From the NCBI RefSeq assembly GCF_057098645.1, contig NZ_CM169472.1: a DNA stretch of 64,000 nucleotides; one strand, written 5' to 3'. The number at the start of each line of letters is the position of its first letter. Position 1 is the stretch's first letter. Position numbers: made by a program. Of this stretch, positions 45,201 to 48,200 are shown piece after piece.

Positions 45201-48200
45201 CGTCAATGCGCATTATCGCCGACATCATCGCCTGGTGTTCCGGCAACATGCCGCGATTTAATACCATCAGTATCAGCGGTTACCACATGGGTGAAGCGGG
45301 TGCCAACTGCGTGCAGCAGGTAGCATTTACGCTCGCTGATGGGATTGAGTACATCAAAGCAGCAATCTCTGCCGGACTGAAAATTGATGACTTCGCTCCT
45401 CGCCTGTCGTTCTTCTTCGGCATCGGCATGGATCTGTTTATGAACGTCGCCATGTTGCGTGCGGCACGTTATTTATGGAGCGAAGCGGTCAGTGGATTTG
45501 GCGCACAGGACCCGAAATCACTGGCGCTGCGTACCCACTGCCAGACCTCAGGCTGGAGCCTGACTGAACAGGATCCGTATAACAACGTTATCCGCACCAC
45601 CATTGAAGCACTGGCTGCGACGCTGGGCGGTACTCAGTCACTGCATACCAACGCCTTTGACGAAGCGCTTGGTTTGCCTACCGATTTCTCAGCACGCATT
45701 GCCCGCAACACCCAGATCATCATCCAGGAAGAATCAGAACTCTGCCGCACCGTCGATCCACTGGCCGGATCCTATTACATTGAGTCGCTGACCGATCAAA
45801 TCGTCAAACAAGCCAGAGCTATTATCCAACAGATCGACGAAGCCGGTGGCATGGCAAAAGCGATCGAAGCAGGTCTGCCAAAACGAATGATCGAAGAGGC
45901 CTCAGCGCGCGAACAGTCGCTTATCGACCAGGGCAAACGTGTCATCGTTGGTGTCAACAAGTACAAACTGGATCACGAAGACGAAACCGATGTACTTGAG
46001 ATCGACAACGTGATGGTGCGTAACGAGCAAATTGCTTCGCTGGAACGCATTCGCGCCACCCGTGATAATGCCGCCGTAACCGCCGCGTTGAACGCCCTGA
46101 CTCACGCCGCACAGCATAACGAAAACCTGCTGGCTGCCGCTGTTAATGCCGCTCGCGTTCGCGCCACCCTGGGTGAAATTTCCGATGCGCTGGAAGCCGC
46201 TTTCGACCGTTATCTGGTGCCAAGCCAGTGTGTTACCGGCGTGATTGCGCAAAGCTATCATCAATCTGAGAAATCGGCCTCCGAGTTCGATGCCATTGTT
46301 GCGCAAACGGAGCAGTTCCTTGCCGACAATGGTCGTCGCCAGCGCCTATTCCGATCTCGGTTTCGACGTAGATTTAAGCCCGATGTTCTCTACACCTGAA
46401 GAGATCGCCCGCCTGGCAGTAGAAAATGACGTTCACGTAGTGGGCGCATCCTCACTGGCTGCCGGTCATAAAACGCTGATCCCGGAACTGGTCGAAGCGC
46501 TGAAAAAATGGGGACGCGAAGATATCTGCGTAGTCGCCGGTGGCGTCATTCCACCGCAGGATTACGCCTTCCTGCAAGAGCGCGGCGTGGCGGCGATTTA
46601 TGGTCCTGGTACACCTATGCTCGACAGTGTGCGCGACGTACTGAATCTGATAAGCCAGCATCATGATTAATGAAGCCACGCTGGCAGAAAGTATTCGCCG
46701 CTTACGTCAGGGTGAGCGTGCCACACTCGCCCAGGCCATGACGCTGGTGGAAAGCCGTCACTCGCGTCATCAGGCGCTAAGTACGCAACTGCTTGATGCC
46801 ATTATGCCGTACTGCGGTAACGCCCTGCGACTGGGCGTTACCGGCACACCCGGCGCGGGGAAAAGTACCTTTCTTGAAGCCTTTGGCATGTTGTTGATTC
46901 GTGATGGATTAAAGGTTGCGGTTATTGCGGTCGATCCCAGCAGTCCGGTCACTGGCGGTAGCATTCTCGGGGATAAAACCCGCATGAATGACCTGGCGCG
47001 TGCCGAGACGGCGTTTATTCGCCCGGTACCATCCTCCGGTCATCTGGGCGGTGCCAGTCAGCGAGCGCGGGAATTAATGCTGTTATGCGAAGCGGCGGGT
47101 TATGACGTAGTGATTGTCGAAACGGTTGGCGTCGGGCAGTCGGAAACGGAAGTCGCCCGCATGGTGGACTGTTTTATCTCGTTGCAAATTGCCGGTGGCG
47201 GCGATGATCTGCAGGGCATTAAAAAAGGGCTGATGGAAGTGGCTGATCTGATCGTTATCAACAAAGACGATGGCGATAACCATACCAATGTCGCCATTGC
47301 CCGGCATATGTACGAGAGTGCCCTGCATATTCTGCGACGTAAATACGACGAATGGCAGCCACGGGTTCTGACTTGTAGCGCACTGGAAAAACGTGGAATC
47401 GATGAGATCTGGCACGCCATCATCGACTTCAAAACCGCGCTAACTGCCAGTGGTCGTTTACAACAAGTGCGGCAACAACAATCGGTGGAATAGCTGCGTA
47501 AGCAGACCGAAGAAGAAGTACTGAATCACCTGTTCGCGAATGAAGATTTCGATCGCTATTACCGCCAGACGCTTTTAGCGGTCAAAAACAATACGCTCTC
47601 ACCGCGCACCGGCCTGCGGCAGCTCAGTGAATTTATCCAGACGCAATATTTTGATTAAAGGAATTTTTATGTCTTATCAGTATGTGAACGTTGCCACTAT
47701 CAACAAAGTGGCGGTCATTGAGTTTAACTATGGCCGAAAACTTAATGCCTTAAGTAAAGTCTTTATTGATGATCTTATGCAGGCGTTAAGCGATCTCAAC
47801 CGGCCGGAAATTCGCTGTATCATTTTGCGCGCGCCGAGTGGATCCAAAGTCTTCTCCGCAGGTCACGATATTCACGAACTGCCGTCTGGCGGTCGCGATC
47901 CGCTCTCCTATGATGATCCGTTGCGTCAAATCACCCGCATGATCCAAAAATTCCCGAAACCGATCATTTCGATGGTGGAAGGTAGTGTTTGGGGTGGCGC
48001 ATTTGAAATGATCATGAGTTCCGATCTGATCATCGCCGCCAGTACCTCAACCTTCTCAATGACGCCTGTAAACCTCGGCGTCCCGTATAACCTGGTCGGC
48101 ATTCACAACCTGACCCGCGACGCGGGCTTCCACATTGTCAAAGAGCTGATTTTTACCGCTTCGCCAATCACCGCCCAGCGCGCGCTGGCTGTCGGCATCC

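Follow-up and report, generated by a model that had tools for sequence, protein, structure and literature searches.

Organization of the scp locus

The window analysed here, by which we mean the whole 64-kb stretch of DNA, contains between 43.4 and 50.9 kb the genes argP, scpA–meaB(argK)–scpB–scpC and srsR (ygfI), in an arrangement collinear with positions 3,059,753–3,067,173 of the Escherichia coli K-12 MG1655 genome. The coordinates of these genes and of other features of the window are listed in Table 1. Disabling mutations were found in scpA, meaB and srsR; all three fall within 6.3 kb, and these genes were the only pseudogenes flagged in the annotation of strain RM9872 for the stretch that matches the 64-kb window.

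Table 1. Features of the window, with positions counted from its first nucleotide
Feature	Position	Strand	Observation
uacT/ygfU (urate/proton symporter), duplicated segment	16850-16919	+	Two identical (100%) 35-bp copies in tandem
ssrS (6S RNA)	39330-39513		
SibC/ibsC type I toxin–antitoxin, tandem copies	40162-40312, 40554-40704		
yqfE	43120-43350	-	76-aa LysR substrate-binding-domain fragment
argP–scpA intergenic poly-T	44497-44503		One T fewer than K-12
scpA (sbm)	44588..46670	+	2083 nt vs 2145 nt in K-12
scpA ORF1	44588..46399	+	584 native codons and 19 missense codons, premature TGA; 603 aa in total
scpA deletion junction	46336..46340	+	Sole kept TCGCC copy; 62 bp (K-12 nt 1749-1810) gone
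scpA B12-domain remnant	46338..46670	+	Out of frame; ASAYSDLG...HHD and original stop
meaB/argK (mutase G-protein chaperone)	46663..47658	+	W277*, TGG>TAG at 47491-47493
scpB (methylmalonyl-CoA decarboxylase)	47669..48454	+	Intact, one amino-acid difference from K-12
scpC (propionyl-CoA:succinate CoA transferase)	48478..49956	+	Intact, two amino-acid differences from K-12
srsR/ygfI (LysR-type regulator, stationary-phase)	49953..50849	-	Q69*, CAA>TAA at 50643-50645
ORF with empty site of P4-like element	52691..53620		309 aa; element inserted at about 52921 in RM9872
DctP-like TRAP solute-binding protein	53642..54718		

The nonsense mutation in meaB cuts the MeaB GTPase to 276 of 331 aa, with loss of the last 55 residues, and 454 public contigs were found to encode exactly this 276-aa product. 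The start of meaB and the original stop of scpA share 8 nt, and the premature stop that now ends the scpA reading frame, 264 nt upstream of the meaB start, should abolish the translational coupling of scpA to meaB and uncouple the downstream genes. The downstream genes scpB and scpC are intact, indicating that the operon as a whole is not decaying uniformly. With respect to srsR, the paper describing SrsR makes no mention of the scp genes; since no link between SrsR and the scp operon is documented, we treated the srsR stop as an adjacent coincidence that lies outside the functional loss.

Several other features were noted in the vicinity. The short yqfE gene is annotated as a pseudogene in K-12 and as a CDS in RefSeq for O145, and is an old remnant common across E. 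coli. The 6S RNA gene and the tandem SibC/ibsC copies are ordinary E. coli features. Besides the gap in scpA, a single indel was seen over the 10 kb compared with K-12, namely, the missing T of the tract between argP and scpA.

A 62-bp deletion between direct repeats in scpA

A preliminary description of this DNA had identified the mutase gene as scpA/sbm, with an intact length of 2145 nt (714 aa), and had proposed that it is inactivated by a deletion of roughly 62 bp. The identity and the intact length were confirmed in K-12. Global alignment of K-12 scpA with the gene in the window gave 19 mismatches and just one gap, 62 columns in length, which the pairwise alignment placed after window position 46335, corresponding to nt 1749–1810 of K-12 scpA; the size of the deletion thus proved to be as proposed. 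The possibility raised at the same time, that an orthologue of 2083 nt might be intact, found no example: intact orthologues span 2145 bp, and the 2083-nt version is marked as 'frameshifted' in RefSeq.

In the K-12 sequence, which is of the ancestral type, the deleted stretch starts with TCGCC, and a second TCGCC follows immediately after it. Only one copy is kept in the window, and the scar can be written as repeat–57 bp–repeat converted to one repeat. The repeat allows the junction to be placed anywhere between 46335/46336 and 46340/46341. Microhomology at the junction had already been noticed in the preliminary description, but as the 4-nt CGCC; the direct repeat is the 5-bp TCGCC, and it can be extended to 9/10 nt as TCGCCnGCGC. 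When the distinct possible deletions of 20–200 bp in K-12 scpA were enumerated, only 0.13% had junction microhomology of at least 5 nt, and the presence of the TCGCC repeat at the junction is therefore unlikely to be a coincidence. In a check for relocation of the 62 bp within the window, no 12-mer of the missing segment was found elsewhere on either strand.

Slipped-strand mispairing is a well-known origin of short direct-repeat deletions in E. coli. In scpA, the segment that was lost had a direct repeat at either end in the ancestor, of which one copy has been kept, and the junction appears to bear the signature of replication slippage or microhomology-mediated deletion. The 62-bp segment bounded by the two TCGCC copies would have been lost by slipped-strand mispairing in replication, leaving a single copy. 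We also considered assistance by a hairpin. In the minimum-free-energy structure predicted for the ancestral segment, the left repeat is paired to the right-hand end of the deleted DNA, but this fold was no more stable than those of shuffled sequences (z = 0.68), and hairpin-assisted slippage, being unsupported, was dropped.

Predicted effect of the deletion on ScpA

The deletion takes out residues 583–604 of ScpA, including DGHDRG at residues 595–600. This block is an example of DxHxxG, the cobalamin-ligand motif, which supplies the histidine that binds cobalt, and it aligns residue for residue with the solved methylmalonyl-CoA mutases of human and Mycobacterium tuberculosis. The loss of the segment with the ligand motif, as suggested beforehand, was borne out by the position of DGHDRG inside the deleted 62 bp; the first 18 positions of the Pfam domain model have gone with it.

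A loss of 62 nt, a number not divisible by three, shifts the frame, and the first reading frame (ORF1), which begins with the ATG at 44588, ends at a premature stop codon at 46397–46399. The preliminary description had counted 603 aa before a run of 14 missense codons. A missense tail followed by a stop is present, but 603 aa is the total length, made up of 584 native and 19 missense residues. The earlier reading is thus supported apart from small numerical slips such as these; it did not take in the inactivation of meaB and srsR, nor the clonal nature of the lesion in O145:H28 and its presence in public annotation. The native part of ORF1 has three amino-acid differences from K-12. In a Pfam search, MM_CoA_mutase (PF01642) matched residues 28–539 of ORF1 (model positions 1–511 of 512, E=1.6e-235), and the substrate-binding barrel is present; no B12-binding domain was found by this search in the 603-aa ORF1. 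In K-12 ScpA, the B12-binding domain (PF02310) occupies residues 586–701 (model positions 2–119). As had been described, the C-terminal B12 part resumes in another frame and runs to HHD; this remnant has the amino-acid sequence of K-12 residues 605–714 without change, and it matches only model positions 19–119 of the 121 in PF02310, positions 1–18 being missing. On comparison of the frames with the domain model, the first strand and the ligand loop of the cobalamin-binding domain are missing from every frame, so that no such domain could be obtained by frameshifting or by separate translation starting at the in-frame ATG at 46329.

That ATG raises the question of a split or recoded enzyme, in which scpA would still be functional as a 603-aa barrel together with a 113-aa B12 fragment, or by ribosomal frameshifting, and the fragments would assemble like the archaeal two-subunit mutases or IcmA/IcmB. 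Translation from ATG 46329 would yield a 113-aa peptide that carries the remnant, with the downstream 110 residues identical to K-12, and two-subunit mutases with small B12-binding subunits have been solved (2yxb, 4r3u). However, any product would be without residues 585–604, including the DxHxxG histidine and Pfam positions 1–18, and these cannot be restored by frameshifting; the 113-aa fragment does not contain the complete B12-binding domain with DxHxxG that a two-subunit mutase has. The sole GGAG upstream of ATG 46329 is about 17 nt away, beyond the usual Shine–Dalgarno spacing. In addition, the chaperone MeaB is truncated too, and PGAP treats scpA as a pseudogene. Retained function by either route is thus extremely improbable, and a functional split enzyme starting at ATG 46329 was rejected, since no frame contains the ligand motif or domain positions 1–18.

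Compared with a functional mutase, the barrel is present, while a complete B12 domain on the same polypeptide, the DxHxxG motif and an intact MeaB/ArgK are all absent. If translated, ORF1 would give a 603-aa protein with the substrate-binding barrel and no B12 domain. This product is predicted to be unable to carry out the adenosylcobalamin-dependent rearrangement of succinyl-CoA to methylmalonyl-CoA, because of the established role of the histidine loop in B12-dependent mutases.

Distribution of the scpA junction

To follow the deletion among E. coli genomes, we used as probe the 45-mer across the junction (window 46316–46360), of which no 28-nt seed can match the intact gene. The 45-mer was detected in 25 of 5,426 complete E. 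coli genomes. Every junction carrier with a serotype label was O145, O145:H28 or O145:NM; no complete genome with the label O145:H28 or O145:NM was without the junction, and the remaining 5,401 did not have it. The records came from US, Japanese and other depositors, with cattle, humans, food and water as sources. The scpA sequence of the window was 100% identical in 23 complete genomes and 99.9% identical in two further O145:H28 genomes. The exact 603-aa product is represented in GenBank (AHG16268.1, AHY66591.1, BCZ68654.1 and BCZ73989.1) and was seen on 363 public contigs.

In the RefSeq PGAP annotation of O145 strain RM9872, scpA (I3Y_RS18675) is marked 'frameshifted', and meaB and srsR are marked 'internal stop'. 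The scpA of RM9872 is 100% identical to that of the window over 2083 nt; the two have junction and 603-aa product in common, and the gene shows no differences. Elsewhere the two sequences differ, in that the window has a 35-bp duplication in uacT and is without a P4-like element that RM9872 carries at 52921; collinearity of the window with RM9872 throughout, which we had considered, was wrong for these two reasons (the duplication at 16850–16919 and the insertion in RM9872). The uacT duplication shifts the frame, and the ORF ends at 16950. None of the 5,426 complete E. coli genomes, those of O145:H28 among them, has its junction, and the duplication is either private to the window strain or an assembly error. 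The element in RM9872 is a P4-like satellite prophage with genes for an integrase, a primase-helicase, psu and ogr/delta, an icd-like gene and a DEAD/DEAH helicase as cargo, and its insertion shortens the 309-aa ORF to 98 aa. The window represents the empty site, with the ORF intact and followed by the gene for the DctP-like protein, indicating that the P4-like element is polymorphic within the lineage.

The presence in the window of a perfect uacT duplication found in no complete genome might raise the suspicion that the 62-bp gap, too, is a sequencing or assembly artefact of a single record. An identical junction in 25 independently assembled complete genomes, and the truncated protein on the 363 contigs, leave this with next to no probability, and assembly artefact as the source of the scpA gap is effectively refuted. 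The lesion is reproducible over independent assemblies and belongs, by serotype labels, to one clade.

Taken together, the scpA lesion is an already-annotated clonal pseudogene of the O145:H28 lineage. The frame is broken relative to intact orthologues at the syntenic position, where the genes on either side correspond. The window very probably derives from the E. coli O145:H28 (STEC) lineage, with scpA/sbm there being a unitary pseudogene. No published description of the scpA lesion was found among the papers searched, none of which brings O145 together with the scp genes or, in a relevant way, with methylmalonyl-CoA mutase.

Order of the lesions in meaB, srsR and scpA

The meaB and srsR stops were scored with allele-specific 55-nt probes over the same 5,426 complete genomes. 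Both meaB W277* and srsR Q69* were detected in 26 genomes each, namely, the 25 junction carriers and UTME-3, a veal strain with an intact 2145-nt scpA. UTME-3 differs from the window by just 7 SNPs over 12 kb, and the ScpA substitutions H27Q, D494N and V537A (relative to K-12) are common to UTME-3 and the window lineage. Since the stops occur in 26 genomes, one of which has an intact scpA, the scpA deletion should be later than either stop. On parsimony, the two stops arose first and the scpA deletion probably followed in the ancestor of the 25 genomes. Restoration of scpA in UTME-3 by recombination was considered as the alternative; many foreign SNPs would be expected from it, and none were seen. 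In the order preferred here, meaB and srsR would have been knocked out in a slightly older ancestor, and the scpA deletion would be a later decay step in a pathway already disabled.

Loss of the scp operon across E. coli and its probable cause

E. coli does not make B12. According to the literature, the scp operon specifies a cobalamin-dependent pathway from succinate to propionate, and it has been reported to be scarcely expressed in this species (PMC3850637).

When K-12 scpA was used as the query, a match was obtained in 5,425 of 5,426 genomes, and at least 80% of the gene was covered in 4,280. About 1,145 of the 5,425 (21%), including UTI89, were without a full-length scpA match. The sampled genomes with short scpA keep only about nt 1–1019 (in one case nt 1–576), mostly abutting a fragment of scpC; at the junction of the large deletion, scpA breaks off near nt 1019 and is followed by roughly the final 150 nt of scpC. 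In UTI89 (locus L004, 4001–5056), the pieces of scpA and scpC are annotated as incomplete pseudogenes, meaB and scpB are gone, and srsR is intact. The scp pathway has thus been lost in E. coli on at least two independent occasions.

Relaxed selection is the most likely cause of the scpA loss, because E. coli, a non-producer of B12, hardly expresses the operon and can dispense with it. In an operon that is rarely expressed and dispensable, relaxed selection would permit the loss of scpA, and it accounts for all observations, particularly once the MeaB chaperone had gone.

The alternative is that the loss was selected and not neutral. In that case, the O145:H28 ancestor would have profited from the inactivation of mutase and chaperone, for instance because scarce adenosylcobalamin was saved for ethanolamine utilisation or because a wasteful drain on succinyl-CoA was halted. 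The three clustered lesions and the independent deletion of the operon would then represent convergent adaptive loss. This interpretation draws on the confinement of three disabling mutations, the sole annotated pseudogenes of the corresponding stretch of RM9872, to 6.3 kb, and on the independent large deletion of the scp operon in about 21% of complete genomes. However, repeated loss is equally predicted by relaxed selection, srsR has no documented link to the operon, and scpB and scpC are untouched; moreover, an operon that is hardly expressed (PMC3850637) would offer little phenotype for selection to act on. We consider a selected loss in the O145:H28 ancestor unlikely. The broader proposition, that the repeated destruction of scpA–meaB, by the O145:H28 lesions and by the multi-kilobase deletion in about 21% of genomes, was positively selected, possibly sparing B12 for ethanolamine utilisation in the gut, appears more doubtful still. 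If positive selection did operate, the 62-bp junction would record an adaptive change made as O145:H28 STEC emerged.

The scpA lesion matters little biologically, being a clonal pseudogene, already flagged in RefSeq, in a rarely expressed and dispensable operon. The sequence across the junction (window 46316–46360) could serve as a PCR or k-mer marker for the O145:H28 STEC lineage. For work on propionate or succinate metabolism in O145:H28, the first step of the pathway is predicted from the gene sequences to be absent. The lesions are nested, in that 26 genomes carry the stops in meaB and srsR and 25 of these also carry the scpA deletion, and they provide a small example of stepwise pathway decay, which parallels the independent operon loss seen elsewhere in E. 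coli.

Comparison with known systems

The scpA gene of the window shares its orthologous position and synteny with K-12 scpA/sbm ('sleeping beauty mutase', b2917) of the scpA-argK-scpB-scpC operon; in both, argP is located upstream and meaB, scpB, scpC and srsR are located downstream. In contrast to K-12, the scpA gene of the window is without 62 bp and frameshifted, and its partner meaB carries W277*.

The same pathway was lost independently at the same locus in the UTI89-like genomes and in O145:H28. The two differ in the form of the loss, which is a multi-kilobase deletion with srsR intact in the UTI89-like genomes, but a 62-bp microdeletion together with point nonsense mutations in O145:H28.

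With regard to mechanism, short deletions between direct repeats are the classic slipped-strand class described for E. coli lacI. The scpA deletion has in common with this class the short direct repeat bounding the deleted segment and the retention of one copy. It differs in that the mechanism in scpA is read from the scar, and the candidate hairpin was not significant.
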